From the NCBI GenBank assembly GCA_024137785.1, contig JAHRHZ010000100.1, forward strand, positions 2,937,427 to 3,001,426: DNA of 64,000 nt. The letters run 5' to 3'. Below the pieces are notes generated by a model. It worked only from the letters and a program-made list of their open reading frames with translations. It ran no database searches and was not told where the DNA came from. Shown one piece after another: positions 215 through 63,730 of this stretch. This DNA comes from Ginglymostoma cirratum. Its lineage: Eukaryota. The translations under genes were made by a program, and so were the position numbers. The first letter of the stretch is position 1. Each line of letters opens with the position of its first letter.

Positions 215-362
215 TAACAAAAGCAAAACGGTGCAGCCGCTTGAAATCTGAAACAAACAATTAGAATGCTGAAGAAACTCAGCAGGTCTGACAGCATCTG
301 TCACAAGAGAAACGAGAGGTAACATTTCGAGTCCAATACAACTTTTCTTCAGAACTTCAGTT
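215..362 (-). mobile_element. Degenerate Neptune-type PLE terminus (HHR remnant plus ~100-nt tail)
   Basis: Matches the tail of the long copy at 3438-3575 (gctgaagaaactcagcaggtctgacagcatctg...aacatttcgagtcc...cttcagaact). Confidence 0.7.
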
Positions 363-3300
363 CTACTGAGTTTCTCTAGCCTTCTCTGAAATAACTTGGG
401 GGTGTTTGGATGGCAATGCCTGAACACAATACATTAAATGATGAGAATTTTATTTTTCCAAGGAATTTGCAATATTTTTCGTTGATATTGCATAGAATCT
501 GAGGACATTAAATAGTTCATACTGGGTGAGTGAAAATACATCGAGGACATAGAAGTATTCTGAGTGATCCAAGAGAGCAGGCAGGGTAGATGGGTACATT
601 GTAATGAAATGGAGTCCCCTGAGTAATCTGAGGGAGCATAACCTGGCATGGAGTTGGGTGTGAGAGTGAGGTTTAAGGGAGAATTAAGAAATTGTGTTTG
701 ATAAATAAAAGCCTGGCATTTCTAATGGACCCACATTTCTCATGCACTCCAGTGTGCGTCTCAGCCGTACTCCAAAAGTGACCCCATTCAAAAGACAAAA
801 ATGGTGGGTCGAATGTGTAGTTCACAAGCAACACAAAGGTGTACTGGTCAGGTTTTCCTCAAAACCAGGAAAGAATTCAGTCCTTGCTCTCAGACTGGTT
901 TGATAACATTCAAGGAAAAAAAAAGGCCAATACTTTGTATTAAAGACCCATATTCCGCACATAATAACAGTTGGCTGACAGTCAGTCAATGTTATGCCCA
1001 ATATCACTGGAGAAAACAAGCAAAAAGCCTGACCACATATAATCTGTCCATCCGGACAGAGAAAAAACAGAATAATATCTTAGGTGGAGACCATTGGTCC
1101 ATTTAGCTTTGAAATTAGTTGAGATTTGAATGGAAGTTTAAGTATAGAAAATGGAATGTTTGAATAAGAAGAATAAGAGTGAAAATGGATATTGGGAATT
1201 TTAGTCTGACAATCTGTCAAGAACAACTGCAGAACATTCCCTCAAGTGAATAAATACATGTCACGGAATGTAACAGTGAGCAGATTAGACTTGACCAATA
1301 GAAAGAATAAATAGTCAACCAAACTTGACTTATTTGTGTTGTTGTAAGCTTTGCAGGAAGTGGTGAACTTCCTAAACCCAAAATGAGACATGAACTGAAG
1401 CTGTTCCAAATTACTGACATCATTACTCCATCTTCTCCTGGAAAATATTTTTTCAGCTTTTCTTCATTGCAGTTTTTGCTTTTATTTTCTTTGTTCTTTA
1501 TTGAATTCCCAAAGATCACTTTTAACTTTGGGTATTGCAAAAGTATCATATTAAATGTTTATTTTAATTGCAACCCTTATTTGTTTAAAGTTCATCCTCT
1601 CCATCACTGTTCGATTCTGCTATGAGAGAAAAACAGGAATATTTTAGCTGTCCATTCTTTCATGGCAGACTGTCAATCAAACATGGTGGAGAGAGGAGAA
1701 ATATTTTCAGAAGGCAATGAAAAAATTCCATCCAGGCAGTTGTCTAACCCCTGTCATGAAACTCAGGCTCTCTAGTCAATAGCACCCTAGAGTCTCATGA
1801 AAGGACCTCTGCACAAAGCTTCATGATTTTCAACTGACTGATCAAAGCTGCCATAGGCACAATTTATAAACCACTAACTGATTTTCCAAAACATTTCTTA
1901 CAGGTCATCTGGTCTCCAAAGCCAACCTAATAATTATAATCTCTCATTCCTGGTGTAACTCTGATTTTTTTTGTGCCTATTTCATAGCTGCCATACACTC
2001 TTTTCATACAATCATATAGTTTGCTCAGAACAACATACAGTAGTCAGACAGTTGCTGAACTCACATTGTGTGCCCATTCAAAATCACTTTTTGGCATGTA
2101 TATTCAGTAAACTGATGCATACATTTCAGAATATCATTTCTGTCATTTTTGCCTTGTTCGGTGTATACACTCATACTTTAAAGTCTATTATTCCTTGACG
2201 TTTTTTAAATTTCAATTTGTTAAGAATCTTACTGTCTTGCGTATTAAAGTTGGTCCACACTTAATGTTGCACTCTGTTCCTGAGAATCACTACTTAAAGT
2301 GAAACAACTTTAACTGAAACATGGGTTCCCACACGAATTAATATTAAACCCAAAGTTCCTTCAGATATTTGCTTGCCCTAGAAAAATGTAATACACAACT
2401 CGCAAAATAAAATGTCATTGAATGTTTCCTGTGTGAATTCACATCTAAAAATTAATTGATGAATGCAAGTCCATGGGGTAAGAAGGTGTTTCAGTTCTTT
2501 TTTTGTTGCTTTTACAAAATGTTGGCATTGACAGACTTAACATCATTTACAGCAAACCTGAGAGGTGACTACGACAGGGTACTTATGTCTCTATTCTCTC
2601 TCCTGGCAGAGTTCAGCTTTGCCTTAGCTCATTTTTTTTCCAATGTTTTGTTTTCTCTTTCAAGCTTCTTTTCCTCTCTGCTGCACATTAGCTTGGGGAA
2701 GATACCACACCTCCACCATGGACTCACTCTCAACAACACTTGTATATGTATTCACTGACTACTTATTTGCAAACCCTATAATTTTCTGTTACTCCCTGAG
2801 TATCTTTCACTCTCTCTCTCTTTCTGTCTCTCAGAAATGTTCCTGTTCAAAAGCCAGTTATAGCTCCCTTAATGTACTAAGCTTTCCAACTCTTCTTTTT
2901 TCCATGTTGTTTTGAAAAATACATATTGCCAATCCAACGGAAATCTTGAGAGGGATAACCTGGAACCTGGCCAAACTGCTCAAGGCTGCTCCTAGTGTTG
3001 CAAAAGAATACTGCAGCTTTATCGTTGGAATGATGCTCACCAGTGAAATTTGATTCAAAGACTGGAGAGGCCATGACATTGCTCTTACACCTTCAAAAGA
3101 GTGTCAATTTTTTTTTTTAAATGGCTCAGAAGGTTAAGTTATCTATTGGCTAGTGAACAATGCACAAATGCTGAGAGGTAGCATGATTCCATTTGGGTAC
3201 TGACAGCTGACTGTGCATGACATATTGCTGCATCATCAATTTTAAACTGAAAATAGAATGTATACCAAGGAAATAGTCACAGAGAGAAAGCAACATTTTT

Positions 3301-3437
3301 GCAAAATATTTTTTGAAATAACCGCGTAATGTTGAGTTTGAAATCCCTGCACTTCATTTTGCTGATCTATTTTACACTTTATGCATCGAAATTGCCACCC
3401 TTCTTTTCACTCAACTAATGAGTGCTAATTCTCTTAT

Positions 3438-4502
3438 AAAAACCAAAAGAACAGTGGATGCTGTAGATCAGGAACAAAAACAAAGTTGCTGGAAAAGCTC
3501 AGCAGGTCTGGCAGCATCAGTGAAGGAAAAAACAGAGTTAACGCTTTGGGTCCGGTGACCCTTCCTCAGAACTGATGGTGGCTGGGAAAACATCAATTTA
3601 TATTCAGAAAATAGGGAGGTGGGTGGGGTAGGGGGTAAACGATAGAAGTAGACTAAACAAAAGTAGAGGATAGAGCCCAAAGAGAGAGAAAGACTGTTGG
3701 ACAGACAAAGGAGTTGCTAATGATCAGGCTGGGAGGGTGAATAGTTGTTAATGGGTACTGTTAGTGACTAACAACAGGGAATGTGTAATGGCAGGCTATG
3801 TGGTAACAAGGCTGGTGCGTGGGGTAGGGGGCTGGGACATAGGAGAGTTTAGGCCCTAACATGATTGCACTCAATATTGAGTCCGGAGGGCTGCAGGGTA
3901 GCCAAGCGGAAAATGAGGTTTTGCTCCTCCAGCTTTGCTGGAACACTGTAGCAAGCCAAAGACAGAGATGTTGGCCGGGGAGCAGGGTGGTGCACTGAAG
4001 TGGTTTCAGAGATCGTAGGAACTGCAGATGCTGGAGAATCTGAGATAACAAGGTACAGAGCTGGATGAACACAGCAGGCCAAGCAGCATCATAGGAGCAG
4101 GAAAGCTGACGTTTCAGGCCTAGACCCTTCGGCAACTGGTAGTTCAGGGTCTTTTTTGCGTGCAGAAGGTAGATGTTCTGCGAAGTGGTCGCCAAGTCTA
4201 TGCTTCGTTTCCCCAATGCAGAGGAGACCACATTGTGAGCAGCAAATGCAGTAGACCAGATTCTGGGAAGTGCAGGTGAGGTGTTGCTTCACCTGGAAGG
4301 TATGTTTGGGCCCTTGGATATCCGGGAGGGAGGAGGTAAATGGGCAGGTGTTGCACCTTTGCTGGTTACAGGGGAAGGTGCTGTAGGGCCGTGGGGAGGT
4401 GTTGGGGGTGAAGGAAGTGTGGACCAGGGTGTCGCAGAGGGAACGGTCCCTGCGGAAGGCGGACAATGGAGGGGAGGGGAGTATGTGTCTGGTGGTGGTG
4501 TT
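3438..4502 (-). mobile_element. Penelope-like element (Neptune-type), 5'-truncated: Zn-linker/GIY-YIG endonuclease, 3' UTR, HHR and tail
   Basis: ORF 4089-4574 reads FRRDRSLCDTLV...PCNQQRCNTCPF...TCTSQNLVYCICCSQCGLLCIGETKHRLGDHFAEHL, a GIY-YIG domain. The C-terminal LEEQNLIFRLATLQPSGLNIE is in ORF 3849-4082. A 12-bp TSD taattctcttat lies at 3426-3437 and 4503-4514. Confidence 0.9.
4004..4130 (-). mobile_element. Second-subfamily PLE terminus nested inside the Neptune endonuclease
   Basis: Interrupts DPELPVA|HFSA. It belongs to the same subfamily as 31113-31238, 35172-35300 and 46067-46277, and begins inside the HHR (gaagggtctaggcctgaaacgtcagc on the minus strand). Confidence 0.85.
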
Positions 4503-4814
4503 TAATTCTCTTATGTTTTCCCTCAACTCTGGTGCACTTCCTAATTTGGGATAAGAAGCAAGCCTTGGTATCACTCCAACATACTACGGTCAATTAATTT
4601 ATAAAAAATGAAGATAAAATATCAATAAAAGGCCCAGTACTGACCTCTGGGTCACAGGACTGATTCATACTCCAAACGTGAAAACAAAACGTAGCCCTTA
4701 AACTTTTGGCCTATCATCTTGAATGTTGTTGGATCGCCTTCAATACGATGAGAACTTGTGTTCTTCACAAATCTTCCATGAAATACTTTTAGATCCTTAA
4801 ATTGCACCAGGTTC

Positions 4815-13179: not shown

Positions 13180-13370
13180 AATGAAAGCAGAATCCAGTGG
13201 AGGTCTGAAACAAAAGGGGAAAATGTTACAAAAATACAGTAGGTCTGGCAGCATCTGTAGAAAGGGAAACAGAGCTACTTGAAGAACTCACTGGACTCAA
13301 AACTTTGCTTCTCTCTCCACAGATCCAGCAAGAACAGTTGTGTTCCTCCGGTATTTTGTGTTTCTGATTG
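13180..13370. mobile_element. Old inverted pair of Neptune-type PLE termini
   Basis: aggtctggcagcatctgtag (minus arm) is followed by tgaagaactcactggactcaaaac...ctctctccacagat (plus arm). Confidence 0.55.
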
Positions 13371-14094
13371 TTTTTAAAACATTAATTAACAATTAGAGTT
13401 GGAGAGGATATTGCAAAGGTGCTTCTTTTTTGAAAGAGGAATTTTTTAGTAGCTTTTAGAAGATTTGTTGTTTCGTCTTAAACAAATAAAGACAGTTACT
13501 TCATGTTATCCATTGCAACTGTGTGACCATTTTAGAAATAGGATCATGGCAATTCACCTTATTAACAAATGGGGTGAAGCAGTTAAAATATTAGGTGAAA
13601 AGATTAGGATGTTTAAGTTGAACAAAATAATTTGGCAAAAATACTGTTTATGTAATTGCTTTGAAATGTACAATCAAATTGTCTATCACAAAACAAGCAC
13701 AATATTATCTTTTCTATAATTCTCACTGTCTATAAATGAAACTTTTTTTTGCAGTTGTATTCTTTGGAATGTATCCAATTTGAACTCAATTGAAACCATA
13801 CATCACATTATAGGACTCGTTCAGCAAACTGAGGAGAAAGATGAATTTCATTATACCGAAACACAAACTATGACAGATGCTAGAAATTAACATGGGGAAA
13901 GGAAATGCTGAAGATACTCTTAAGGTCAGGTAACATTAGCGGAGAGAAGAACAGAATTATTCCAGTGTCATTATTCTTCACAGTCCTGGGCAGATTAGTT
14001 GCCACACCAAGCCATGATGCATCTGGATAGAATGCTTTTGAAGGTGCATCGATGAAAATTTAAGAGTCTTTACGGACATGCTGAATTTCCTTAG

Positions 14095-21599: not shown

Positions 21600-22385
21600 T
21601 TTCCCCACAGAAAGTAAGATGGTTGTGGTTACTTGCAGTCAATCATCAAAGCCCTAGAAGATCACTGCAGGATTTTCTCAGGATAGTGTTTTAGGCAGAA
21701 CCATCTTTAACTACTTCATCAATGACTTTCCTTGTGCCATTAAGGTTGGAAGTAGGGGTGTTTTTTGGTGATTGTGCAATGTTCAACACCGTTTGCAACT
21801 TAAGTACTGAAGCAGTCCAAAGACAGCAAGGCCTGGGCAATATTCAGGTGTGGGCAGATAAGTGGCAAGTATGATTAGTACCAGGTAGTGATTTCCAACA
21901 AGCGAGGATCCAACCATTATCTTGTGGCAAAAACAAAGTTGCTGGAAAAGCTCAGCAGGTCCGGCAGAGTTTTGAGGAAGGGTCACCAGACCCGAAACGT
22001 TAACTCTGTTTTCTCCTCCACAGATGCTGCCAGACCTGCTGAGCTTTTCCAGCGACTTTGTTTTTGTTCCTGATTCACAGCATCCGCAGTTCTTTTGGTT
22101 TTCATTATCTCGTGACATTCAGTGGCATTGTTATTGCTGAGTCTCCCATGGTCGAGATCCTGAGGGTTACCATTGACCAGCAACTGAACTCGACTAGCCA
22201 TCGAAATACTGAATGCAATACTAAATACAAGGGCAGGTCAGAGGCAAGTAATTCGCTTCCTGTCTCCCCAAAGTCTGTCCACATGCACAAAGCATAAGAT
22301 TGAGTGGAATATTCTCCACTTGCCTGGATGAGTGCAGCTCCAAAAGACTCAAGCTTGACTCCATCCAGGACAAAGCAAGTCGCTT
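21600..22385 (+). mobile_element. CR1/L2-group LINE RT fragment, interrupted by a PLE insertion
   Basis: QDSVLGRTIFNYFINDFP, then ILRVTIDQQLN and EYSPLAWMSAAP. Confidence 0.75.
21930..22102. mobile_element. Fold-back Neptune-type PLE terminus with HHR
   Basis: A short inverted arm (21930-21967) precedes the plus-strand HHR and tail. The TSD cattatcttgtggca / cattatctcgtgaca (13/15) lies at 21915-21929 and 22103-22117. Confidence 0.85.
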
Positions 22386-28557: not shown

Positions 28558-28711
28558 AAAAGTTGAAAGAACTGCGGATGCTGTAAATCAGGAACAAAAA
28601 CAAAGTTGCTGGAGAAGCACAGCAGGTCTGGCAGCATCTGTGAAGGCAAAAAACAGAGTTAACGTTTCGGGTCTGGTGAGGAAGGGTCACCAGACCCAAA
28701 ATGTTAACTCC
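28558..28711. mobile_element. Fold-back Neptune-type PLE terminus
   Basis: A minus-strand tail is joined to an inverted HHR piece. The perfect 14-bp TSD attcatttcattgt lies at 28544-28557 and 28712-28725. Confidence 0.9.
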
Positions 28712-31112: not shown

Positions 31113-31238
31113 ATTTCAGAGATAATAGGTACTGCAGATGCTGGAGAATCCGAGACAACAAGGTGTGGAGCTGGATGAACACAGCAGGCCAAGCAGCATC
31201 ATAGGAGCAGGAAAGCTTGACGTTTCGGGCCTAGACCG
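31113..31238 (-). mobile_element. PLE terminus (second subfamily), truncated inside the HHR
   Basis: Near-identical to 4004-4130; the minus strand reads ggtctaggcccGAAACGTC. Confidence 0.85.
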
Positions 31239-34924: not shown

Positions 34925-35945
34925 GCATTTACATCCTCCCTTAAAGTAAGGATGTCAAAATTGAGTGCAATATTCAAAATGTGGTCTCACCAGGTTGTGT
35001 AAATGAAGCATTAACATTCTTAATTTTATTCCATTGATTTTGTTAGAAAGGATAGCATTCCATTAACCTTCAATAATTACTTGCTGTACAGGTGTCTTAA
35101 CTTCTTGTGACTCGTGCATTAGACCACCTAGATTCCTTGGAATTCTGCAGGCATTCTGTATTTAAATAAGAGGTAGTAGGAACTGCCGTTGCTGGATAAT
35201 CTGTGATAACAAGGTGTAGAGCTGGATGACCACAGCAAGCCAAGCAGCATCAGAGGAGCAGCAAAGCTGACATTTTGGGTCTGGACCCTTCTTCAGAAAT
35301 GGGGGAGGGGAAGGGGATTCTGAAATAAATAGAGAGAGGGGGGGTGGCGGATGGAAGAAGGATAAAGGAGCAGATAGGTGGAGAGGAGTCAGACAGGTCA
35401 AGGAGGCAGGGATGGACCCAGTAAAGGTGAGTGTAGGTGGGGAGTTAGGGTGGGGTCGGTCAGGTCAAGGAGGCGGGGATGAGGCTGGTAGGGAGGAGGT
35501 GGGGGTGGGTGTTGAGGTGGGAGGAGTAGATTGGTGGGAGAAAGGACGGACCAGTTAGGGAGGCGGGGACGAGCTGGGCTGGTTTTGGGATGCGGTCGGG
35601 GACGGGGAGATTTTGAAGTTTGTGAAGTCCACTTTCATACCATTGGGCTGCAGGGTTCCCAAGCGAAATATGAGGTACTGTTCCTGCAACCTTCTGTATT
35701 TAAATAAGATGTTTTTTATTCTTCTTGCCAAAGTGAAGAACTTCACATTTTCCCCCGCTTTACACATAAAATATCAGATTTTTACCCTTCACTTAGCTAT
35801 TTTTGTCTGCAACCTCTGTGAATTCTGTTCACAACATAATTACCAACTGTTTATGTGCTATCTGCAAATTTAGCGAAAATACACTCATTCCCATCATATA
35901 AGTCACAGATATATAGCCGCAACTTTTAAGACCCTAGGCTGAAGT
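34925..35945 (-). mobile_element. Degenerate CR1 fragment split by a Neptune insertion
   Basis: aaattgagtgcaatattcaaaatgtggtctcaccag (LVRPHFEYCTQF on minus) lies on the left, and cttcacattt and atctgcaaattt (KFAD) on the right. Confidence 0.65.
35172..35691 (-). mobile_element. Neptune-type PLE 3' fragment
   Basis: Encodes RLQEQYLIFRLGTLQPNGMKVDFTNF, followed by a C-rich 3' UTR and an HHR remnant at ~35265-35300. An 18-bp direct repeat ttctgtatttaaataaga lies at 35154-35171 and 35692-35709. Confidence 0.9.
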
Positions 35946-37399: not shown

Positions 37400-40020
37400 A
37401 CTACTATTAACCCACCATTGGAATGATATTCTTTTGCCAGGGAATGTGATTCATGCGGTAAGTGCTGTGGCCATGGTGACTGTTGTTGCTTATCCTTTGT
37501 CTGGCTGGGGAAAGGTGGAGCTCTGGAACTGATGGTCATTCTCTACTCTATGCTTTTGGTGATACCATATCTTCCTCATCAGGTTTTTGCAGTGAGCAAC
37601 TTCTCGGGTTGTACATTTATGTCTGCAGTTGTGGCAATGTACTGGTTATTCACCAACTGCTTCACACAGGTTCCAATTGGCCATGTGTACTGACGCTAGT
37701 TGAGAATGTTGTCACTCTGACTGGATCTCCAATGCTTGGCTCTGGCAGTGTTGTCGTCAGTTGTCGTTTTAAGTGAAAGTTGCTCCTAAATTGGTGCACG
37801 TTCCAAGAGAGAGTTTATCTACGCTCGCAAATCCAACAGACTTTTTCTCTGCTTTCATATTTACTTTCACTGTCTTGTCATCGCCTATGCTGTTCACTTT
37901 AGGCATCTTCAATTGCACCTTTTCTCTTTCAACTTCATCTGATAATCTCTCTCCAGCAGTCGCACCAAATTTTGGTCATGGTCCTCAATGGCCTATTCCA
38001 TCATATAATAGATATTCAATAAACTCAGAGAGCATCCATGATAGTCCCTGCTGTTTGAAGATCACTGATTCTGAGTTGTACTCACAGAATTGCAGAAATG
38101 CTGAACAGTATGTAGAAGAAATCGTATCCAGTCACCATCCTTCACATTTCAGGTTGAAAAGACCTATGCTTTGGCAATTATAGCAATATTTCCTCAACGC
38201 TTACATGGTGTAAGTAGATTCTTCAAAACTTTACTGAGATGCTTTTGTTCTATGCATGCTCTCAGCTGTCCAGATTTTATTTTTGTTTGCTGATGAGCTA
38301 CCATGCAGCTCATCCACTCTATAGGAGTTGCCACTTTTTGACTATTTCCCTGTTTTCCAGCCCTGACGTCTTATCTTTCCGGTTCAATTGAGGGCAGCTG
38401 GAACTCTACTCTGCAGAAGCTGAGTTCATCTCTCATGCTGATCAACTTTGAGATGATATTGATTAGTAAGAGGTGCAAGACCAATTAAAAACATTTTTGT
38501 CATGTCTTTTAGAGTTTGTTCATTGGACAATAGCTCAGTGCTTTGTGAAACACTGCAACACCTCTGGTTGTGTTGTGTGGCTGCTTTATTTGTTTTCTAA
38601 TCAATCCACTCAGAGATGATAATACATATCTCTGGAGCAGGTGGGACTTGAACCCAGGTCAGACTCAGCTCAGCCGGGCTGTGTAGTTCCTTGTTATGCC
38701 CAATGCGTTGGCTCACAGCTTAATTTGTCCACTTGGGGTGAGTATCATTTGAACATAGAGCCTCAGCCTTACCAAGCAGGTTGTTTATTCTTGGGGTTGC
38801 CCACCTTGACTTTGCACAGGTCAGCAAAACTCAATCCGTTGCAGGAAGCACAAGTGTCTCATTGACACCTGACATCCAGTCAATATTCTCCTTCTGTAGT
38901 CATTATAAACATCAAGAACCATTATCATCTTTAAACCTGATGATGTCAACCTGTTGTATGACATAGATTGAATCCCAAGAATCATCATCTGACCTTTCTA
39001 CAGCAGCCATATGCGTAGGTTTACTTTCCAGCAAAATATGTGCTTGCACAGGGATTCCTCTGCGTGTGGTTACAATGCTGCTTTCCCCACGCAGAACATT
39101 TTTTTTTTTGTTCTTCTAGTGTGGAGGTTCTGAGCTTCTACAAAAGGTCCTGTAACAGGTCGCTGGACCTGAAACATTAACTCTGATTTCTTTCCACAGA
39201 TGCTGCCAGATTTGCTGAGCTTTCTCCAACAATTTCTGTTCTTGTTTCCGATTTACAGCATCTGCAGTTCTTTCGGTTTTGATCTTTCTGCTGGTCTTTT
39301 TGCAACCATTTCTTCCATCGTTTTTTCCATTATGTTGTTTTGTTCAGCCTGCACTGTCTCTCAGTATAATGCAAACACTTCTCTGTTCTCCCTTTTGATA
39401 CTCTCTTGCTGATGATGAACAACTTTAGTGCTTTCGCACATGTCAATGGCTTTGTTGAAAGTTACTTTCTCCTCCTTTAGTGGACACAGTCTCACAATGG
39501 AATATCTTATGCCTGAGATAATTGTATCTCTAATGAGTTTACCTTTTAATTTTCAATACTGTCAGGATTCAGCCAGATGTATCAATGCAGGCACATACTA
39601 AGCAAGTGTTTCCCCTAAGTTCTGATGAAGAAAACATAACTAACATGTAGAACATTCAAAACATTTTCAAGGCTGTCAACATTTCAGCAATCTGACCTTT
39701 CTGCTCCTCTATGGTGCAATACAGTTTGTAGTCTTGCTTCCCTCCTACTGACAACAGAGTCACTTTGTTTATTTGATCAGCTTTTCTTGTATAACGCTAT
39801 AGCCACTTCAAATGTTGCCTTTGTAGAACTCCAATTCTGTCTCCTTTCACCTTTCATTTCCAAAGCACCAGGTACTGAAAAATTCACAGCTATCCTGACT
39901 CACCCAGTGCTTCAGAGTTGCAGACTGCTGTCCTAGTTCTTCTTTGCTCTTTCTTACAGTAGTTAACTCTCTTACAGCTCAGAAAGTCTACCCAGTTTCA
40001 GCTGCACAATTCTAACAGCA
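37400..40020 (-). mobile_element. Highly decayed Gypsy internal region (gag and integrase C-terminus)
   Basis: Minus 39425-39550 reads KGKLIRDTIISGIRYSIVRLCPLKEEKVTFNKAIDMC (gag). Minus ~37715-37750 reads LPEPSIGDPVRV. A PBS-like tgctgttagaa follows ...aaca at ~40010-40025. Confidence 0.6.
39150..39282 (+). mobile_element. Neptune-type PLE terminus (eroded HHR plus tail)
   Basis: ggtcgctggacctGAAACATTaactctg...cacagatgctgccagatttgctgagc...cagcatctgcagttc. Confidence 0.8.
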
Positions 40021-42734: not shown

Positions 42735-42813
42735 TGCAGTGTGGAGCTGGAGGAACACAGCAGGCCAGGCAGCATCAGAAGAACAGGAAATTGACATTTC
42801 AGGTCGGGACCCA
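42735..42813 (-). mobile_element. Partial PLE terminus (second subfamily)
   Basis: gtgtggagctggaggaacacagcaggccaggcagcatcag...tgacatttcaggtcgggaccc. Confidence 0.75.
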
Positions 42814-45523: not shown

Positions 45524-46066
45524 CAACTCACTGTTACTTGTAAATCTGTTTAAAAGTCCTCTCGTGGCACATTGATTCTCTTCATTATATTTCTGTACAT
45601 TTTTGTTTTTTGTCGAACATGCAAAAGCTTGTTTTATTTAATGTTGCATTTAATTGGTCATTGGTTTGTATATTTGCATGATATTTATAACTCTTTATAT
45701 AAATCTTTGCTGTCCTCCATTCCTGTCACGTTTCTAATTTAGTTTTAGTTGCAGAGTTAATAAATTTTAATTTGGTTTCTGTATTCAGGTCACTCAGAGA
45801 GATCAAAAATAATAAGGATGTTAAGTATTCTGTTCAACTGTCTCTCAAAAAAACCCCTATTTCCTATTCAATTTCTTAGTCTTTCCTGCATTCTTAGAAT
45901 CTTAGAATTAGCTTTACTGTCAATGTACTCAAATGAGTACAGTGAAAAGCTTACAAGTCACCAATTATTCTTAAGTATACATTCTGAGGGAAAAATAAAT
46001 TAGAAATAAAAAGTCCAGCATTACAAATCATAGGAATAAATTAGAAAAAAACAAAGAAATAACATG

Positions 46067-46277
46067 AGATAACAAGGTGTAGAACTGGATGGACACAGCA
46101 GGCCAAGCAGCATCAGAGGAGCAGGAAAGCTGACATTTTGGGCCTAGATCCTTCTTCAGAACACTAGGCCCAAAACGTCAGCCTTCCTGCTCCTCTGATG
46201 CTGCTTGGTCTGCTGCGCTCATCCAACCCTACACCTTGTTATCTCAGATTCTCCAGCATCTGCAGTTCCTACTATCC
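46067..46277. mobile_element. Fold-back PLE terminus (second subfamily)
   Basis: Two inverted arms meet at the HHR. The 13-bp TSD aagaaataacatg lies at 46054-46066 and 46278-46290. Confidence 0.9.
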
Positions 46278-48873: not shown

Positions 48874-51419
48874 AGATATAGACAGGTACAAAAATAAGTG
48901 TTATGGGCAGAGGGAAAGACTGGCAAGCTGGTTCAGTGGCCCCTGTTCACAGGGTTCATTGAAGTGATCCTTTTGTCTTGTCAGGACTTTGGTGTACTTC
49001 GATACTGTTTCTCCAGGCACATCTACATGTTTGCAGGAGGCACAGAGTGGCGAGCCCACAACTTACAAAGTCTCTGATTTACTGCTTATAGCAACTACTG
49101 AGGGAAGCATTTTTGCCTGATTTAACGTAAGCTTTATGCCAAAGAAGAGAGACAGCTTCTTCCCTTTTTGAAATCCTCCCTTAAATGTTCATTCCCCCCC
49201 CCGCCCTTGAGCTTTTGAACTACCTGGGAGTCAATCACGTAGTAGTTGACAGGAAAAAAGTTTGTGTCATTGAAAATTAGTTACGAGTTCACATACCAGC
49301 CAGCTACTTGTTGTCAGGTGAATTTCCATCTGTTCACACTCCTTGACTCCAGCTCAACTCTAATTCAATATCCCCTTGCTGGGTGAACCTCAGCTGTGTA
49401 AGTAACACTTGTAGTGAGTGTCAGGTAACTTGCTTTTGAAAAAGTGCAGCAGTTCCTTAGTTTTTAAAAGCTGTCATTTTTCCCATTTCAGTTGACAATA
49501 AAAAATACAAAAAAAAATACGGTTGTTATAAATGAAAGCATTGTCCCTAGCGTACGGTTACAATATTAATTATGAGTTCTTGGCTATTAGAACCCAATCA
49601 ATGAGAGCAGATATCATATTAAAATGTCATCCGGACACAGAAAAACAACTGCCAAACAACAGACTCAACCTTATGAGGAAAAATGTCTCTACACATAGTT
49701 TCAATGAATAGTTCTGGCTTGGGTGTTACTAATTTTTTGCCATCAGGTCATGAAAGCTTCTTCAGACTGTAGAAACATTCTTTTCCAGCACAGCAACACC
49801 AAGACTATTATTTCACCCAAGCTCACTTAACTCATCCACTCTACCCACTTATCCATTTACTTCACCCATCTACCATCTTCCCACTCATAGTCATTCATCA
49901 ACTCACCTGTTCAACTGTTCTTTAACTTGCAGCTATTTACCCAATCACTAAGATTCACACTGGACATTTAAATTTACCTTAAGGCAGCTAGTGCCATTAT
50001 AAAAAGAAAGGGGGAACATGTCCAGACTTTCCCCCAAAGCTACTGGGTGGTGATGGGGTTCTTTAAGTGAATGTGTGCTCACAGCTCTGGAGAAGCTGGT
50101 CTCAGAAGATGCAGCCAGTTATGTGGACCAATGTTAGGGTGCATAAAGGTTTGAGTCCAAATGTCGGTCTGACAACGATTGCCACTTAGTGAGAGATGTG
50201 GGCAAGTGTAACTCACCAGGATTGAGGTAAATTCTGTCACATCAGCAGTGATGATTTCTACTGGGACATTTCGTCAGGAAACCCATACATTACAAATTGT
50301 TACAAGTCTGTTTTAAAAAAGAAATTGGCAGACATCTTGCATCTTTGAATAATGGTTAAAGTATTCTCTTTATGCATATTTAATACTGTATTGCATGATC
50401 TAAAACATACACCTATGCCAACATATCCTGTGCTCATTGAAGTTCAGTTATTTGATGTACTGAGGCTATGTCAATATGAATAGAGAGAAGAGAGAAGAAT
50501 CCCTTTAGGTATTACATAATGAGAATGAGTTAGAAATGCAATACTTGCTTAACAATTCATCAATATAGAGCATTAGCTTTGGGTGCAATCATTTAAACTC
50601 GTCTGTTATTCAAGATTTACTTCATTAGTGTATTTATTTTTTAAATAAAACCTGTTTGGAATTCTTCAGAAAAATGTGTACTTTCATTTATACAGCGATG
50701 CTGAGACTGAAATTTTTGTTAAAAAAACCAGAGGTTGAGGTTGCTGCACAAATCAGTCTTACTTATAAAATGCTCTTGAAAAAAATAAATTACTCTGAGA
50801 CTCAGGGGGACTGTTCAAAAGCATTATTAAATTGTACTTTGCAAAATAACATTAAAATATAAAGTAATTTGGCTGTAATTATTTAATCACAAGTGTTGTT
50901 AGTCGTTGATTAGGTGAGCAGTTGATATGAAAACCCATTCATCAATCTTGATGAAATTGGATTCTAATAAAGACGCTGAGGTCATCAGTAGATCAGTTTT
51001 TAGATATGCTTCCGAGCCAGTTGCAGCTTTATGATCCTCCAACTGACACATGATAACCACGTTAAGCAAGGTACTCTTCCTTGATGAGATAAGATGTTAC
51101 AGTTCATGTGCTCATTGTTATTATGACATTAGTCACTTGGCATAGTCTAAATTCTGTGTATTAATTGATATAAAACAATTATCCTTGAAAATCGCATTGA
51201 TCGCAAGGTTTCAGTGGAATGCATGAAAAGCAATGTGATATATTTTTCACTTGAACCATGACTGTACCCTTTTATCTTGCATCATCAGCCCATATGCTGA
51301 TTAATATCTCATCTTTCACCCTATCATGGACCTTACCTCTTGTCATTTCTCCCTTTCCCGCATTACGTTGACTCTCTATTTGACTGGAGAAAAATCAATA
51401 CATTGATAACTGTTTTCCA

Positions 51420-51545
51420 ATGCTGACAAAAAATCACTAATCCGAAATATCACCTCTGCTTTTCTTCACAGATTTTGCATCCCCTGATGAGTATTTGTAG
51501 TATTTTCTGTTTTTTGTTCCAGATTTCTGGTATCTGCATAATTTT
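51420..51545 (+). mobile_element. Old Neptune-type PLE terminus
   Basis: ctgacaaaaaatcactaatccgaaatatc...cttcacagat...gttccagatttctggtatctgca. Confidence 0.5.
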
Positions 51546-52720: not shown

Positions 52721-54414
52721 AAAATAACGCAATACTTGGAAATGAACATACCGTTTGTGCTGGATCTCAAAATGAAGTGCACAAGATGAGTTGGACCAGT
52801 CTGTTTAATTTACTGGTTTTTGTTTCTGGGTATATGCTTGTAGACCTTGGTCTTTGCCTGGAGTCCTTTCAGTTTGAACAGCTTGCTGACCACGTGACAT
52901 CTGGATTTGATGCCAGGAATAAGATCATGGATGGCATCAGGCAGCATAGTAGAGAAAAATATGCAGAAGGGAGTTGGTATTAGCGCAAGGCTATGTTTAT
53001 TGACTGGGAATAGGTTAGATGTCTCACCACATTGGATGGACATACTGGCTCTGTGTTGTATGAACTGCCGCTCATGATGAAATTTACTACCTCCATCCTC
53101 TTTAAATGAAGGAGACAGTCCCTGCTTGATCTACTGAATCATCAAGTGGCAAAACATATTGATGATCTGCAACTATCATGCTGTCAACCTGATACACAGG
53201 TCATGTCGTACTTAAGAATGCAATGAACCTTTACTTGCTGCTCCCAGTATTTACTTTTGCACATTACACTCACAGATACTTCCTGATCTGGGGTCACGCT
53301 GAGCAATTTGGATGTACTGTGGCGTGCTTGCCTCAGCATGTCATACTGCAAGATAGGCACCTCTATATTCTTGTGGGATGGTTCCTTGATATCTCGGAGA
53401 CAGGAATGAGTTTGGTGAGGTTCTTGACCAGTTATTGGTCCCCAGCCCTGCACATCTCAGCTGTTGGTCACATCAAAAAGACAGGAGTTTAATTGCATCT
53501 GTTCTTTCTAAGGGCATGAAGACTGAAGTCAAAGGCAAACCATGACAGCCCATTGATTGCTGCTTCATTAATGCACAAAAGCCAACTGAGGACACAATGA
53601 ACATGCTCTGCCCAGCTTTCTAGAATTTGAGTTTTCTCTGTGAGGAATGTTGACCCATGGACACCAAGGAATGATGATCAACCAGTTTTAAAGCATGACT
53701 TCACAACCTCATAAAATTGAAATTCACCTTCTTCCTGATTTAGCCAAGTGATTTGCATCTTTCTAAACTTCCATCAGATATTCCTGCATATGTTTCATGA
53801 GGTATTGTGCTTTACACAATGACTTACCATTGATGTAAACTTGACTTTTGTCGACTGCAGTAATTGCTGAATTATCTTTATTAAATCAAATTAATCATAA
53901 TGCACATGAGAGGTAGGGACAAGAGCCCCTAGTGCAGTAGAGTACTCTATATCCATGAAGATTTCCCAGACATCCTTAATCTAATGTGTGCCAATTTTCC
54001 ATTGTACATAGGAGACTTTTCAGTTTCTCTGAGCAGGGATGCACATGTGCAGTGGGTGGTTTCATGGATAATGGGAATACCAAATGTGTAATGCAGTGAC
54101 TAAGGCACAATGGTTAGTATTTGGTCTACAGACTCAAGCTTCCTGTTACAGAAGGCATATTTTCACGATAGAAAGCATGTGATGTTACTTGATCAGTCTT
54201 TGTGGTGAGATTTGAGGCACTGTGACTATTTCCTTTCAAAGGATTCAAGAGAGAAAGAAGTTTCCCGAGGCATATTTGGGGGTGTGGGCAAACTACTGGA
54301 AGTATGTAAACTCAAAAATAGGGGGGGGGGGGTGCAGGGAATTCAATTTTAGATGGTAGGGAACTAATGTTAGTGAGTACAGTAAAAGTGAATGGCAATG
54401 GGATTTGGTGCTTA

Positions 54415-54525
54415 AAAAACAAAAGAACTGTGGACGCTGGAAATCTAAAACAGAAACAGAAATTGCTGGAAAATCTCAGCAGATTTGGCAACATCTTTGG
54501 AAAGAAATCCCTTTTTCAGAACTGA
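54415..54525 (-). mobile_element. Neptune-type PLE terminus
   Basis: aaaagaactgtggacgctggaaatctaaaacagaaacagaaattgctgg...cccttttcagaactg-like end. Confidence 0.75.
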
Positions 54526-55779
54526 TTCAGGATTTGAAGCATGATCACATAGATATGGAAGAATTTCAGGACAAATGAAGTTCAGTGGATGAATGCAGGA
54601 GACTGTGTCTAAATAGCAGGAATTCAAAGGTGAAATGAAAGGTGGCACTGGACAATATTGAAGGGGTGGAATTGGTTGCCTTGTGATAGAGAAGACATAG
54701 GATGGGAGCTATTGAGTAATGAACGGAATGCTAATGTTTCAAGCAATCTGATTCAGTTTGAGCTTGGAGACATGGAGGTTAAATGGAGTTGGTGGTGAGG
54801 ATATGGTGGAGGTTGAAGATGTTGTCTAAGGTCTATGCAACAATCATCAGGCATGCAAATTGAAGAAGCAGTATGAAAACACAGAAGGAATTGTGGTTTC
54901 AAGTAAAGTTGTTGGAGCGGTGTAGTGGACTGTGTAGACGATGGCCACTCATTTCTAGGTTATGTCATAAAAGGTCAGCAGAGAGTTCTTGAGGCAAAGG
55001 CCGCATTATCACGGGTACAAATTGAGATGCAGACTATTGGATCATATAAAGATAAATGTACAAAAAAAATGAAGCAGAAAATTGACAGGCAAACTGAAAA
55101 CAACACGTTTAGATTGCTTTTTGCAGAGAATTGGGCTGATAAGCTGAATGATCTTTTTTCTTTAAAAAAATGAGGCTGTGTGTAAAACTGGGATTATACC
55201 AAGCATAAAGAATTCATTGTTAATTTAACTCTGCAACTCAACCATTAATAAACTCTTGTGGATAAGGGATCAAAAAATATTCTGGCATCAATGATTTATT
55301 GCAGCAGCTCAAGTTCAAATTAATGCAAACATGGTAATGTAAACACATTAAAAAAAATTAAATTTGTATTGTTGCTTTAATCTCCAGTGAGGGCACAGGG
55401 TTGTATTAGCTGCAATGGAATCTTTACTGTCAACAAGTAGTAATTTGAAAAAACAAGAGATTATTTTATTGTAGATTACTTCAGAAACATAAGCAGAGGG
55501 TGGGAAATGCTCAAACTAGAAACCAGGACAAAGATCACTCATATGTCAGATAAATGTATCAAAACACTACCAACGCCAGGTGCAACTCCTTAAAAAGCTG
55601 TCATGCAACAAATACTGCCCTCATGTATTAATGGCTTGTGTGGGAAATCCTCTAAGTTAGATCTGTTCTCTGTATCATTGGCTGGCTTCACATCCTAAAT
55701 AGAATTACTGAAAGGATTCTTAAAGTTGTACTCTCCTATGCTGAAATGCAAAAGGAGGTGAACATAGCAAACACACACA

Positions 55780-55900
55780 TTTCTGAAGAAGAATCATATC
55801 ATACTCAAAATGTTAGATCGCTTTCTTCCTCCACGATGTTGTCGGACCTGCTGAGTTTATCATTCACATTGTATTAATTTCAGATTTCCAGCATCCACTT
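55780..55900 (+). mobile_element. Old Neptune-type PLE terminus
   Basis: ttCTGAAGAagaatcatatcatactcAAAATGTTag...gacctgctgagt...cagatttccagcatc. Confidence 0.65.
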
Positions 55901-57000: not shown

Positions 57001-58278
57001 AGAACAAAGGACGTAAGAACCAGGAGCAGGAGTAGGCTATCTGGCCCTTCGAGCCTGCTCCACCATTCAGCAAGATCATGGCCGATCTGTTATGACCTCA
57101 GATCCACTTACCCATCCCCTCACCATAATCCATAATTCCTTGACTGTTCAAAAAATTATCTATCTCAGTTTTAAAAACATTCAATGAGGAAGCCTCAACT
57201 ACTTCTCTGGGCAGACATTTTCACAGATTCACAATTCAGTCCATCCTCAATTCAGTCCTAAATCTGCTCCCCCTTATTTTGAGGCAAGGCGCTCTTGTTC
57301 TACTTTCACCCACCAGTGGGAACATCCTCCCTGCTTCTATCTTATTTATTCCCTTCATAATTTTATATGTTTCGATAAGATAACCCCTTCATTCTTCTAA
57401 ACTCCAATGAATATAGTCCCAGTCTACTCGGTCTATCCTCATAAGCCAACCCCCTCAACTCTGGAATCAACCTAGTGAATCTCCTCGGCACCCCCTCCAG
57501 TGCCAGTACCTCTTTTCTCAAGTAAGGAGGCCAAAACTGCACACAGTACTCCAGGAACAAAAACAAAGTTGCTGGAAAAGCTCAGCAGGTCTGGCAGCAT
57601 CTGTGAAGGAGAAAGCAGAGTTAATGTTTCAGGTCTGGCGACCCTTCCTCAGAACTGTACTCCAGGTGTGGTCTCATCAGCACACTACACAGCTGCAGCA
57701 TAACCTCCCTGTTTTTAAACTCCATCACTTTAGCAACGAAGGATAAAATTCGATCTGCCTTCTTAATTACCTGATGCACCTGTGAACCAACCATTTTTGA
57801 TTCATGTGCAAGGACACCTAGGTCCCTCTGCACAGCAGCATGCTGCAATTTTTTACCGTTCAAATAATAGTCCTTTTTACAATTGTTCTTGCCAAAATGG
57901 ATGACCTCACATTTATCAACATTGTTCTCCATCTACCAGACCTTTGCCCACTCACTAAAATATCTATATCCCTCTGCAAACTTTCAGAGTCCTCTGCGTA
58001 CTTTGCTCTACTACTCATCTTAGTGTCATCGGCAAATTTTGACACACTATACGTGGTCCCCATTCCAAATCATCTATGTAAATTGTAAACAATTGAGGTC
58101 CCAACACTGATCCCTGAGGCACACCGCTAGCCACTGATCGCCAACCAGAAAAGCACTCATTTATCCCCACTCTCTGCTTCTTGTCATCCTTTATCCTTGC
58201 TAATACTTGCCCATAAAACCATGCATGTTTATCTTATGCAGCAGCCTTTTGTGCGGCACCTTGTCGAATGTCTTTTGA
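57001..58278 (-). mobile_element. CR1 LINE 3' ~1.2 kb, interrupted by a PLE terminus
   Basis: [20 protein letters not shown] and LEYCVQFWPPYLRK, with a CR1 tail at 57001-57090. Confidence 0.92.
57556..57656 (-). mobile_element. 101-bp HHR-plus-tail PLE mini-insertion
   Basis: The 10-bp duplication gtactccagg lies at 57546-57555 and 57657-57666. The minus strand reads AGTT-CTGAGGA-AGGGTC(GCCA)GACCT-GAAA-CA-TT-AACT. Confidence 0.9.
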
Positions 58279-59549: not shown

Positions 59550-62500
59550 GGCTGTAAGACACCAGTCTGTGTCCTCCTGTGTTTTTCTTGAACTAGTTAG
59601 AAGATGGATTTCTGCAGTGAGTGTCTCATGGCTGAGGTCACATGGCAATCCCAAACCAGGAGGCACATTAGTACAGTATTCCATTTCTATGCCAAGCACT
59701 ATCTTTTCAAGGAGAAAAAATGTATGCATTATTGTTTTTTTCATTGTGACTGTTTCTATTACGTGTTATTAACTGTTCATCCGGTTCCTTCTCCAAGGAG
59801 TGTCATTCCATGGTCACTTGTTGTTACTAGGCTACATGTTGTTGTTCCTTTTATCTTGTTGGGCTGCTGTGAACCTGTGGAATTGTGTTTGGTCTATGGT
59901 CTGTGCAGGCAGCGAGTTCATGTCTCCCTGATTGGCGATCCGCAGGGAAGCAACAGTTTTTCCAAGTGTGCGTAGGTACCTGTAGTTGTGACAGTGTATT
60001 TGGTTGGTCATTTCCGCCACAAATGATTGAGATGAAAACTACTATAAGCAGGTCCCAGTTTGTTACTTGGCATGACTGTTGTTGAGAATATTGAAGGTTT
60101 GCTCAATTCTCAACTCGAGCAACATCAATCATCAGAATCAAATTTGACTTTTGACAATTCAAGTTTGATTTTGTCACTCTCACACATACCACTCAGTAGT
60201 TTTTTTTTCCCACTATTGGAAGAGTGCTTTGAGTATTGTCTGACATTAGTCTTTGTGCTGGACGACTTTCCATGTCTTCAGAAGTGTGTACCTCCATTCA
60301 AGGATTGCTGTGTATACGTTCGGGTGCGATTTGCTTTATTTCTGCCATCCCTTTTGGTAATTTCCGTTGTTCTCTGCACCAATACCATTACGTATCTTTC
60401 ACAGAGTTCGCATGATGGTTCACGCTCCAGTGACAAGCTGGACAGGAATTTTGCCAAGTATTCCAATCGAACAAATCATTGCAACAAAAGCAGAAATTGC
60501 TGGAGAAAGTCAACAGCGACTGTGGAGGGAGAAACAGAATGAATGTTTCGAGCCCTGGTGACCCTCCTTCACTGCTGTTATATCTGATGGTGCTGTACAA
60601 CGTCCATGCATCTCACCTTTTCGGAGAGCTGGGTAAAGTTCTTTTGATGTAAACACATGACCTTGGGCACCATCATTTGCAATATTTTTCTTGCTCAGCT
60701 TCAGCTATGTCTGACCAAAATTGTCTAGCAGCTGCAATAGTTCTTTTATCATGGTAACCAATGGCCTTTCCCACATCCATAAAGGAGCAAATCATCCACC
60801 ATGTCCACTACTCTAAGAAGATCACTAATTATCTCATGTCAATACTTCTCCGGAGCCATGGAAATGTCAAATGGCATGAGCAGCCAACTGTGTCCCATGC
60901 ATGTTTCAACTAGCTTCACTTGCCAGTAACTGTCTTTGACGCCTTGGGTAAGGAAGACATTTTTCCTTTGTCATTTATGTTAAAATTTCTTTGATGGTTG
61001 ACATGGGGTTATGAGATCTTTTCAGAACTTTAATTCAATCTTTTGGCACAATGCAAACTCTCAGTTTTCCAGGTTGTTTCATTGCTGTCATGCTGCCAAT
61101 CCATTCGTAGGAGTTGTCACTTTCTTGATTACTCCCTTTTTTTTTAGCTTTCAGGCTGGCCTCAAAGACAGCTAAAAGTTTCCTCCGCAGATATTGCACT
61201 GGTCTCACACTCTCAATTGTTCTGAGATGATATTCACCAGGAACCTGTAAACAAATTGTTGTACTCCTCTAGGATCTGTTCCATGGTAAACTGTTCAATG
61301 TACGGCAACACATTGCAAAAAAACTTCTGTCATGCAGAGGGTTACCAGTCCAAGCTTTAGATTTGCTTTGACTGAGATGAGTGGCTTCTGTTTGCTGCTT
61401 GTGTTCTGGGACTCCAGATCTCTATTGATTTGATGTTCTCCTTCTGCATCCATTGTCACAACAGTCACAAATCCCCATGTCTCACCAAATGACCTGAGCA
61501 AACCAACCTGTTGTACAGTGTAGTGTGATTCATTAGAATCTTCAAGTGATATCTCTCCAGTGGCCATCTGTACCAGCTTTTTATGTCTCCCTTCTGTCCA
61601 AACACTAGTGTGCAAAATGATTTGGCTTTTTACATTGAGAACACTGCTTTCTCCAGCCTAGACACTCTTCCTTCTCGTTTCTATGATGTCCTCCACAGTA
61701 TTTGCATTCTTCCCTTTGTATGTGATCTTTCTGCCCTTAGTACCTGAAATGTTTATTTGCAAAATGCAAGGCCTGGTCTGTTCTGCTATGAATATGTTGT
61801 ATCTACTGATTTACAGTCTCAGTACTTCTGCTCCTGTTGATCACTTTTGACAGGAAGTTTCCCCTCTCTCAGTATATATGCTTACAATGGGATCTCTACA
61901 TTTCGAATGCAAACCTATTTCTAATTTGATCATCTTTATGTTGTGTAAATTCACAGGGTTTTGCAAACTGTGTTAATGTGGTCATATATTGCTTAATGGA
62001 TTGTTTTCACCTTGATCCTTAATATTGATACTATTTATAATTTCCATTCACTTGGCACTCAATATATGCCTTCAAGGCAGTCAAGATTTCCATACCTTTT
62101 TCTTCTGTACATTGGACAGATTGAGGATAGAAATCACTTTGAAACAATCTCTCTTCAATTACTACAAGTGTAGCTAATTGTAGCTGTTTCAGCTTGTTAA
62201 TTAAATCTGTTGCAATCTTGTGGCCTTTCCAAATGGAAAACGTTCTTGTTTCATATTGATTTTCATTTCAAGTGTGTCTTAGCTAGTGCTTTCAATTCTG
62301 ACTTGCTTCTTTGTTTGTTTTCTATGGCTTCTTGTGGTGTTTAGCAGTTTTCAGCATCTCTGAACATCTCTGTGTTCTTCTTTCAGTAGCCGTGCTCCTG
62401 TACAGCTCTTCAACTTTCAATCTCAACTCCACTCTGATGCCATGTTATAAGTTCACAGGACAACAGTCTGGCTTGTACTGTGTCTTTATTGAACTGGCTG

Positions 62501-62640: not shown

Positions 62641-62674
62641 AATTTGATGTTAACTGGCCATTTTTGTTTTGTTA

Positions 62675-62764
62675 CAATAACAGAAATTGCTGTAGAAACT
62701 TAGTAGATCTAGCAACATCTGTGGAGAGAAAGTAAAGTTAACATTTTGGGTCCAGTATCCTTCA
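62675..62764 (-). mobile_element. Neptune-type PLE terminus
   Basis: aacagaaattgctgtagaaact...catctgtggagagaaagtaaagttaacattttgggtccagtatccttc. Confidence 0.7.
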
Positions 62765-63594
62765 AGAGACATGAGTTTTTGTTGTTCTCTGCTATTGTTT
62801 TCAGCTCAGGTATACTACTGCACTATTTTTTTTGCTATTCACCTAACACTCTGTAGAAAATAATACCTTGTTCTCTTTTCCCTCACTAAGGCATTCTGAG
62901 TATATGGATGTAATGATAGCTCATTGTCAATGTGTGCAAAGAATCTTACCCTCTGTATTGATACAACAGGAAATATCATTTTTGATCCAGTATACAACAC
63001 TATCGAAAAGAATCTGTTTGTATGGAATCTGTTTTCCAGCAGCAATCCTGCTTGGCATTGATCATGTAGTGCACTTGATTTCCTCAACTCTTGAGCTGAT
63101 ATTGACATATGAAATTACACACGAGCAGGAACCACAAAGATTTTGACTCTGTGTTTTTCACACTGCAATTCATACTGCCATGCTTAGTACTGTGTTTAAG
63201 CAAAGTCTTAATGAGTGATTAATAAGGTAATGGGAAAAGCAATGGGTTTGAGAAAGAGGAACAACATCTGAATCAGTTAGCTTTTGAGCTTAATTAGTAT
63301 TCTCCCCATCTTTTAACACCCAGAAGGAGAAAGCAGCATTAGCAGAAACAGACACTTCAGTTGTATATTCCATTAATTATTCTCGCTGAAATCACTGGTA
63401 AAATAAGCAGCTGCAGCAGAGATCGCAGATTGAACCCATTCTGGATTGCAAGTCGCAAAATGACTGAAGTGAACTAAAGCAATTGATTTTTTAATTGACA
63501 GCTTGCTCTCATGTTCTAGCACTTCAATCTTGGCAAGTACTTGAGTACGGATGTTGGTCAGCGAGCATAACAAATCGAGAACGTACACTCTAAC

Positions 63595-63730
63595 ACATTG
63601 CGGGCATTGGAAATCTGAAATATAAAGGGAAAATGTTGAAAAAAATCAAACCAGCAGCATCTGTAGCAGTAGAAAAATCATTAACATTTTAGCTTTCTCC
63701 TGCTGAGTATTTCCAGCATTTTCTATTCTC
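63595..63730. mobile_element. Old inverted pair of PLE termini
   Basis: ggaaatctgaaat...gcagcatctgtag is followed by the inverted cctgctgagtatttccagcattttct. Confidence 0.55.

Follow-up and report, generated by a model that had tools for sequence, protein, structure and literature searches.

Most short Neptune-type termini in a stretch of Ginglymostoma cirratum DNA begin at or just inside a hammerhead motif whose first base is a predicted transcription start

Truncated copies of Neptune and other Penelope-like elements (PLEs) are described as carrying a GIY-YIG region, an optional tail of 30-40 nt that is often present at one end only, head-to-head inverted arms and target duplications of variable length; their truncation is described as variable, and their solo repeats are ascribed to recombination or deletion (PMC8557442, PMC3846280). 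The present analysis concerns Neptune copies in a stretch of 64,000 nt from Ginglymostoma cirratum (assembly GCA_024137785.1, contig JAHRHZ010000100.1, positions 2,937,427-3,001,426, forward strand), hereafter the window, which is 40% G+C and contains many repeats. The same GIY-YIG element, optional 30-40 nt tail, inverted arms and variable target duplication, all of them Neptune traits, are present in the window, whereas truncation there shows a step at one site, the hammerhead ribozyme motif of the terminus.

Minimal hammerheads of metazoan PLEs have the same core, bulged base, G-C closing pair and palindromic GAAACGU box as the window copies, and likewise no stem III (PMC4209133). That paper reports thousands of dispersed single minimal motifs, termed probably truncated copies, and a single minimal motif that did not cleave; its available text gives no breakpoint map or link to a start site, and helix II of the window copies is 4-5 bp. 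For PAc, a Poseidon-clade element of anole studied in vitro, the protein primes internally at two sites bounding the optional tail and extends both DNA strands, removal of 5' sequence from the RNA yields shorter products, uncleaved RNA is the main substrate, and the open reading frame (ORF) starts in the hammerhead; the same arrangement is proposed below for the window copies, and genomic 5' ends or a start site are not discussed in the available text (PMC11167929). Non-long terminal repeat (non-LTR) retrozymes are likewise non-coding, derived from PLE termini and equipped with a type I hammerhead, and dispersed monomers exist, but by definition they are tandem repeats containing two or more complete hammerheads, of which there are none in the window (bioRxiv 10.64898/2026.07.22.740005). 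The upstream repeat supplies the promoter (PMC2377424), and in rotifer Pen2a a TATA box and an initiator lie in the pseudo-LTR, with the ORF starting inside it (PMC8557442/PMC3846280). Rebuilding of the pseudo-LTR and the role of the hammerhead are given as open questions (PMC8557442, PMC2377424). Truncated PLE ends, dispersed minimal hammerheads, tails, inverted arms, internal priming and one TATA/initiator pseudo-LTR are already published. A breakpoint step at a predicted start, and its strong-stop-like reading, may be new; no such paper was found in a search with subscription papers and Repbase outside its range.

The window was searched with an nhmmer profile built from 11 of its own termini, and matches were counted at E<=0.1. 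This gave 24 of the 28 rows obtained at E<=10, and the reversed window gave a single row (E=0.94). The 24 termini represent 19 insertions, five of which are head-to-head pairs, and comprise 21 short arms and three arms that reach further upstream. In each terminus about 65-100 nt follow a minimal type I hammerhead motif, and most copies are decayed. An initial annotation, made from the letters alone, had described about 17 short termini in two subfamilies, with two copies retaining coding sequence. The swarm of short termini stands at the revised count; the coding copies are indeed two (3436-4520 and 35169-35691); and the termini divide further than proposed, into family A, two variants of family B and older A-like copies. 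All 11 upstream boundaries that it listed are right to within 3 nt.

Positions are counted from the start of stem I, whose first base is +1 (3573 for family A and 35300 for family B); the starts of five old copies were placed by eye. Six of the 24 arms start at -3 to +3, 11 at +5 to +19 and four at +26 to +68, the last all belonging to head-to-head pairs; the remaining three extend upstream. Three arms start at the 5' base of stem II. A hazard test, in which the longer arm of each insertion was used and a likelihood ratio was combined with constant-hazard simulations, showed that 15 of the 19 insertions stop within -3 to +19 (p=4.8e-12; 0 of 200,000 simulations), at a stop rate of 0.054 per nt against 0.0013 in +20 to +60 and 0.0021 upstream. 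Ten insertions can be compared with a long reference in the window that matches at 84-100%, and eight of them stop in the same interval (p=1.6e-8). These results confirm that the clustering of starts at the hammerhead is real and non-random, as had been suspected.

A step at the same place was seen in contigs from sequencing runs of two related genomes, X2 and X14, aligned to the window at 85% likeness; the best-matching runs share just 0.24 of the words with the window and so come from relatives or fragmented assemblies. Over 3423-4562, summed contig depth, which in these runs does not equal copy number, drops by a factor of 3.8 in X2 and 4.0 in X14 between the hammerhead bin and the one after it, and is 2.9-fold and 3.5-fold higher in the hammerhead bin than in the best upstream bin. 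Beyond the step there is no smooth decay: depth is near a plateau over 900 nt, declining only about 0.001 per nt. Among the 15 contig joints listed, out of a set with 1,723 more, ten fall at 3572-3574; all figures on joints rest on that list. Loose ends at 4130 match family B for only about 10-11 letters more (629 and 1,777 contigs), to the same boundary. Two further runs, X17 and X23, guessed to be RNA and used as contigs, have steeper steps (5- and 15-fold) and were not counted as start-site evidence.

The boundary lies in the following features of the two long copies with a young terminus. The promoter calls are predictions from the letters.

3436..4520, minus strand: long 5'-truncated Neptune copy of family A, with a Cys linker, a GIY-YIG coding end, a C-rich 3' untranslated region (UTR), a hammerhead and a tail
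3597..3602, minus strand: TATA box TATAAA, at -29 to -24 from the boundary base 3573
3569..3575, minus strand: initiator-like YYANWYY; its A, at 3573, opens stem I and is where transcription is predicted to start
3536..3573, minus strand: minimal type I hammerhead motif of family A, GAAA mutated in this copy
3436..3535, minus strand: tail after the hammerhead of the long family A copy, with preferred 3' ends near +100-105 and +138
35169..35691, minus strand: long family B copy with a GIY-YIG end, 3' UTR, hammerhead motif (35265-35300) and tail; 18-nt target duplication
35325..35331, minus strand: TATA-like box TATTTAT, at -31 to -25 from 35300, with an initiator-like motif at 35296-35302

In both copies the boundary is an initiator-like A located 29-31 nt after a TATA-like box: TATAAA at -29 in family A and TATTTAT at -31 in family B, each with YYANWYY at +1. 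Standard consensus patterns for the TATA box and the initiator were applied. From window frequencies, the chance of box and initiator falling at the boundary is about 3e-5 (A) and 9e-5 (B), a post hoc estimate that has to be read with two initiator letters fixed by the ribozyme sequence. The box at 3597-3602 does not appear in the best 40 of 582 contig differences. This marking of the boundary by a TATA-like box and an initiator was not part of the initial annotation.

Target duplications of 10-18 nt were found at 6 of 18 insertions tested: at four of the 16 short ones (10-14 nt) and at both of the two long ones. The long family A copy has a 13-nt duplication (3404-3416/4516-4528) plus 19 nt of filler. 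The young short copies (mini-copies) and pairs are as follows.

57556..57656, minus strand: family A mini-copy starting exactly at +1 (or at a shared C at -1), with a 10-nt target duplication (57546-57555/57657-57666)
4004..4130, minus strand: family B mini-copy starting at +10, within the GIY-YIG region of the long family A copy
21928..22105, no single strand: family A head-to-head pair, plus arm 21968-22105 from +1 and minus arm 21928-21967 from +60; 12-nt target duplication with one mismatch
28566..28710, no single strand: family A head-to-head pair, arms from +16 and +6, with a 3-nt microhomology and a 14-nt target duplication
46065..46276, no single strand: family B head-to-head pair, arms from +2/+3 and about +17, with unequal tails (one short, one long) and a 13-nt target duplication

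One reading of the boundary is that families share a hammerhead and tail but not a 3' UTR, with ordinary 5' truncation beneath. It would gain from nine of the 19 insertions, for which the window offers no long reference that matches, and from the 3' UTRs of families A and B, which do not align with each other. The depth profile also mixes families. Against it, the target duplications of four short insertions abut the boundary or lie within a few bases of it; that of 57556-57656 abuts +1. The empty site of 4004-4130, an insertion that interrupts the long family A copy, is present in both related genomes, in which contigs join 4003 to 4131/4132 with 2-3 letters between. The upstream flanks of ten tested copies share nothing with each other or with the long copies, and eight of the ten reference-matched insertions stop at the boundary. 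This artefact is already contradicted for the young copies, and overall it is highly improbable. A splice acceptor at the boundary was also rejected, since no shared upstream exon was seen and a target duplication abuts +1. So was the formation of solo repeats by recombination, in which the TATA-bearing part would be kept; the mini-copies, unlike published solo repeats, lack that part and have target duplications of their own.

Assignment of the copies to Neptune, as first proposed, is supported by protein motifs. The peptide of 3436-4520 contains a C-x4-C-x2-C linker that is (nearly) invariant across 24 aligned sequences, and its GIY-YIG end, translated from 4137-4520 and 3860-4003, carries two cysteines in the interval from the GIY box to the YIG box. 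Four long homologues of the window fragment have RVT_1 followed by GIY-YIG; Pfam gave no GIY-YIG match for the window fragment itself. A CX2-5CxxC linker between reverse transcriptase and endonuclease typifies Neptune and Nematis (PMC8557442). Membership of the Neptune clade is supported by a linker common to Neptune and Nematis, in window copies that lack the reverse transcriptase, and is to be taken as probable on that footing.

The hammerhead was compared over an alignment of 17 copies, which has the expected core, bulged base, G-C closing pair, palindromic 15.2-16.2 box and short stem I. Pairing reaches 84% in stem I and 87% in stem II; slid controls give 23-43%. The motif had been said to survive, intact or as remnants, in most copies. 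Remnants are indeed widespread, and both halves of the core (CUGANGA and GAAA..UH, relaxed pattern) are kept in just two of the 17. Three of 19 pairs change on both sides, a covariation score reached by 103 of 500 shuffles; RNAalifold predicted no pair over the copies, and the Rfam search of the window that had been suggested returned no hammerhead family among its six matches at E<=1.

The tails contain a further regularity, a near-invariant GATG at about +57 (for example in 22024-22104). In family A a reading frame free of stops runs from it as far as the end of the tail. On paper it also pairs with a CAGCATC some 50 nt further on, and this GATGCTG/CAGCATC tail helix is 95% paired with zero two-sided changes. 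This GATG might be a start codon or a binding helix. As the start of an ORF, the ATG gave frames that differ between the families and tail translations that match no start among 202 proteins. Neither the tail patterns nor the protein alignment search gave matches in viral contigs, and the tail patterns gave none in metagenome contigs.

We lean towards the view that the mini-copies are promoterless, dead run-off copies, in which priming would occur internally, 100-138 nt into an uncleaved RNA, and synthesis would stop at the RNA 5' end. In this scheme the TATA-like box would drive RNA polymerase II transcription from +1, so that the hammerhead would lie at the very 5' end of the RNA, where a lone minimal hammerhead would mostly stay uncleaved. 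The element protein would nick DNA and prime at an internal RNA site, as with the anole Poseidon protein, and from +100 to +138 only 100-138 nt could be copied before the RNA end was reached. The short complementary DNA (cDNA) would join the other DNA end bluntly, or after trimming or at microhomology, which would give the shoulder at +5 to +19, and priming from both DNA ends would give head-to-head pairs. Since priming inside the RNA does not depend on a fixed 3' end, donors could be the 5' repeat of full-length elements or, in trans, truncated copies of any kind in which the box survives. Having lost the box, the daughters would be dead, much as processed pseudogenes are when the small RNA they come from relies on an upstream promoter. 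An RNA start at +1 together with priming at +100 to +138 would account for the size of the mini-copies, their boundary and their intact upstream core without a multimer or a circle.

The 3' ends are in keeping with two priming sites. In family B they lie at 4008 and 4042 (869 and 722 contigs, X14), 34 nt apart; loose contig ends peak at 3435-3436; and two young head-to-head pairs each have one long and one short tail. We infer that the preferred 3' ends near +100-105 and +138 mark sites at which reverse transcription began. The junction at 28678 has a 3-nt overlap, and that at 21967/21968 is blunt at +1. Joints matching the latter (3514/3572) were found in 12 contigs of X2 and 11 of X14.

Junctions of the 21967/21968 type recur, with joints at 3514-3518/3572 in X2 and X14 (5-17 contigs per row). 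The sequence just upstream of +1 matches the reverse complement of the tail at 6 of 7 positions, which may favour fold-back at that junction.

The template appears to have been uncleaved, as had been suggested: among the 21 short or partner arms, the starts of 19 lie at the cleavage site or upstream of it, 17 of them well upstream.

The initial annotation had offered arrest or strand switching of the reverse transcriptase at the hammerhead as one cause of the boundary. That the enzyme stalls or switches strand at a folded or protein-bound hammerhead on a longer RNA would suit the 11 of 24 arms beginning within the motif (+5 to +19), including the three that begin where the 5' strand of stem II does, and the beginning of stem I exactly at +1; head-to-head junctions also recur at the motif, and protein-assisted folding is described for the anole hammerhead (PMC11167929). 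However, a polymerase would reach both helices from the 3' side, and the sharp peak is found 5' of them; the folds of six mini-copies, moreover, do not exceed those of shuffles in stability (z -0.35 to +0.90). Poseidon-like copies also have a hammerhead, yet mini-copies among them are 0 of 5, and the TATA spacing is left unexplained. As the main cause, stalling is judged rather unlikely.

Relatives of the window copies were sampled for the promoter arrangement. From 501 confirmed Neptune loci at 40-50% identity, 80 were kept, chosen for long copies; 44 have a downstream core, 17 end too soon and in 19 none was found. TATAWA occurs 33-43 nt before the CUGA core in 30 of the 44 loci, and four shifted windows used as controls gave 0 of 44 each; one locus, L001, has a TATTTATA run at about this position. 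In the window, each of the four complete Poseidon-like termini has a TATA-like box, 47-48 nt ahead of its core. By our own reading, the printed anole PAc template has a TATA-like run 30 nt before an initiator-like A, which is 14 nt upstream of the core. One distant locus, L043, is a full-length Neptune-like element with a repeat-ORF-repeat layout (910-1110, 1057-3951, 3794-4180), and its intact 964-aa ORF starts at the cleavage triplet of the 5' hammerhead. Since that ORF starts inside the hammerhead, the hammerhead in this relative must lie at the mRNA 5' end, with the tail as the start of the body; an ORF overlapping the hammerhead is published for anole PAc (PMC11167929) and for rotifer Pen2a. 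L043 would be a good candidate for an in vitro assay.

The boundary could also be a preferred GIY-YIG endonuclease nick in a DNA intermediate, during resolution of a tandem or self-primed copy, and not an RNA end. The anole protein cuts at ATT within its own repeat (PMC11167929), and ATT is found at +1 in family B and at the predicted start of a distant lineage. Tails and inverted repeats have been ascribed to endonuclease resolution (PMC8557442), and self-priming on an antisense template has been proposed (PMC3846280). Family A, however, has the sharpest peak and AGT at +1, whole mini-copies are directly flanked by target duplications, and a TATA box at a fixed distance would be left without a reason. 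We consider such a nick improbable.

A dedicated non-autonomous retrozyme or short interspersed nuclear element (SINE) lineage mobilised by Neptune, perhaps through circular or multimeric RNA, had been the other initial proposal. Short copies are in large excess, and four family B mini-copies have nine common differences from the only long B copy. Identity between mini-copies is 92-95% in family A, against 91-92% with the long copy, and 88-92% against 85-90% in these B copies; the seven shared differences of the A mini-copies from their long copy include several that contigs show to be private to the long copy, and there is one long copy per family. Retrozymes are moreover related to PLE termini (bioRxiv 10.64898/2026.07.22.740005). 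The window, on the other side, has no tandem array: Tandem Repeats Finder gave three rows with periods of 7-21 nt, none in a terminus. In the seven mini-copies tested, no RNA polymerase III A box (one mismatch allowed) or B box and no tRNA were found. The upstream box is missing from the mini-copies, which occur in each of at least four types of terminus, and single insertions carry target duplications of their own. A circle would join at the cleavage site (+34/35) and not at +1, and no such joint was seen among the 15 listed; a multimeric or circular template is unnecessary for the mini-copies. Such a dedicated retrozyme or SINE has little probability, and annotators are cautioned not to file such pieces as SINEs or retrozymes.

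Several results weigh against the run-off explanation. In the window itself the shoulder at +5 to +19 (11 arms) exceeds the peak (six arms), and families that have the terminus in common but not the 3' UTR inflate the depth step. The RNA start at +1 is predicted, and contigs cannot show RNA 5' ends; start site and stem I coincide, so that the two are not separable from the window alone. Six junctions at +1 show no extra cap-derived G. The third long copy (51419), which is old, has no clear TATA box. The nine differences shared by the aligned B mini-copies mean that no long donor matching them is present here; the sequences compared include no full-length element of this host, and tail translations match none of the starts among the 202 proteins. 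The 30 TATA-bearing distant loci form one broad lineage, with a weak box match in the L043 family and none in the L064 family. In the distant loci, 22 secondary termini are spread from -280 to +52 around the core with no sharp peak, and only 2 of the 13 termini in -65 to +36 fall in the predicted start window (p=0.13). Poseidon-like termini have the box and no mini-copies in five, which neither a start-site nor a ribozyme reading explains.

Three of the same 13 distant termini fall at the cleavage site (p=0.02, one doubtful).

Short arms whose first base is at the predicted cleavage site, or no more than 6 nt beyond it, were seen at L035 510, L004 422 and 3072, and window position 13277. Arms of this kind are possibly copies of cleaved RNA.

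If the run-off explanation and its tie to the promoter are true, repeat debris becomes a readout of RNA start position, the in vivo template is mostly uncleaved, and any box-keeping truncated copy can seed mini-copies in trans; such donation may explain the excess of mini-copies and the B variant. In LTR retroelements, priming near the RNA 5' end yields minus-strand strong-stop DNA, a short cDNA of fixed length ending at the cap. By analogy, the step proposed for the window element resembles strong-stop synthesis, although it is not an LTR element: there is no tRNA primer or integrase, and chromosomal DNA would serve both as the primer and as the place where the product is fixed. A wider and tentative extension, which we think possible and clearly less likely than run-off as such, is that PLEs have a hidden U3-R plan with a TATA-directed start at the hammerhead. 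Strong-stop cDNA would then either be inserted at once, giving mini-copies, or be carried by strand transfer or a ribozyme-made circle to the 3' end, giving long copies and partial tandems. The hammerhead would act as a switch between dead mini-copies and productive ones, and the mini-copies would be a fossil map of starts and of cleavage in vivo.

The remaining termini, which include the older copies, are as follows.

232..356, minus strand: old A-like mini-copy, start +1
13198..13368, no single strand: old head-to-head pair, minus arm from +34 (cleavage site), plus arm from about +5
13874..13980, minus strand: old degenerate mini-copy, start about +6 by eye (E=0.0035)
31114..31237, minus strand: family B mini-copy, start +14 (5' base of stem II)
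39158..39283, plus strand: A-like mini-copy, 80-86% to family A, start +14
42739..42812, minus strand: family B mini-copy, start +13
51310..51538, plus strand: old copy, seemingly with about 110 nt upstream of the hammerhead (51419), edge placed by eye
54413..54526, minus strand: old A-like mini-copy, start -3 to +1, with a deletion inside the hammerhead
55778..55899, plus strand: old mini-copy, start -1/+1
60483..60572, minus strand: old mini-copy, start about +6
62671..62764, minus strand: old mini-copy, start about +6 to +10
63599..63729, no single strand: old head-to-head pair, arms from about +26 and +68

The upstream 110 nt or so of the copy at 51310-51538 are pyrimidine-rich by eye. Single-arm insertions are on the minus strand in 11 cases and on the plus strand in three (p=0.057), a bias that could reflect purging from an intron of a plus-strand gene. 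Window tails carry pyrimidine runs ending in CAG that resemble splice acceptors. The mini-copy at 42739-42812 adjoins the right arm of an inverted repeat (41770-41873/42813-42950; about 104 nt, 81% identity, about 1 kb between the arms), possibly an old DNA transposon. The long interspersed nuclear element (LINE) targets are presumably CR1-like.

At the distant locus L014, positions 2411-2663 form a head-to-head pair; several short repeats of the sequence immediately preceding the hammerhead lie at its junction. The window also contains Penelope copies at 7105-7821, 24116-25181 and 47652-48859, which we take to be Poseidon-like from their protein motifs; they belong to two families with hammerhead motifs of their own, and the Poseidon-like copies include two large head-to-head inverted pairs.

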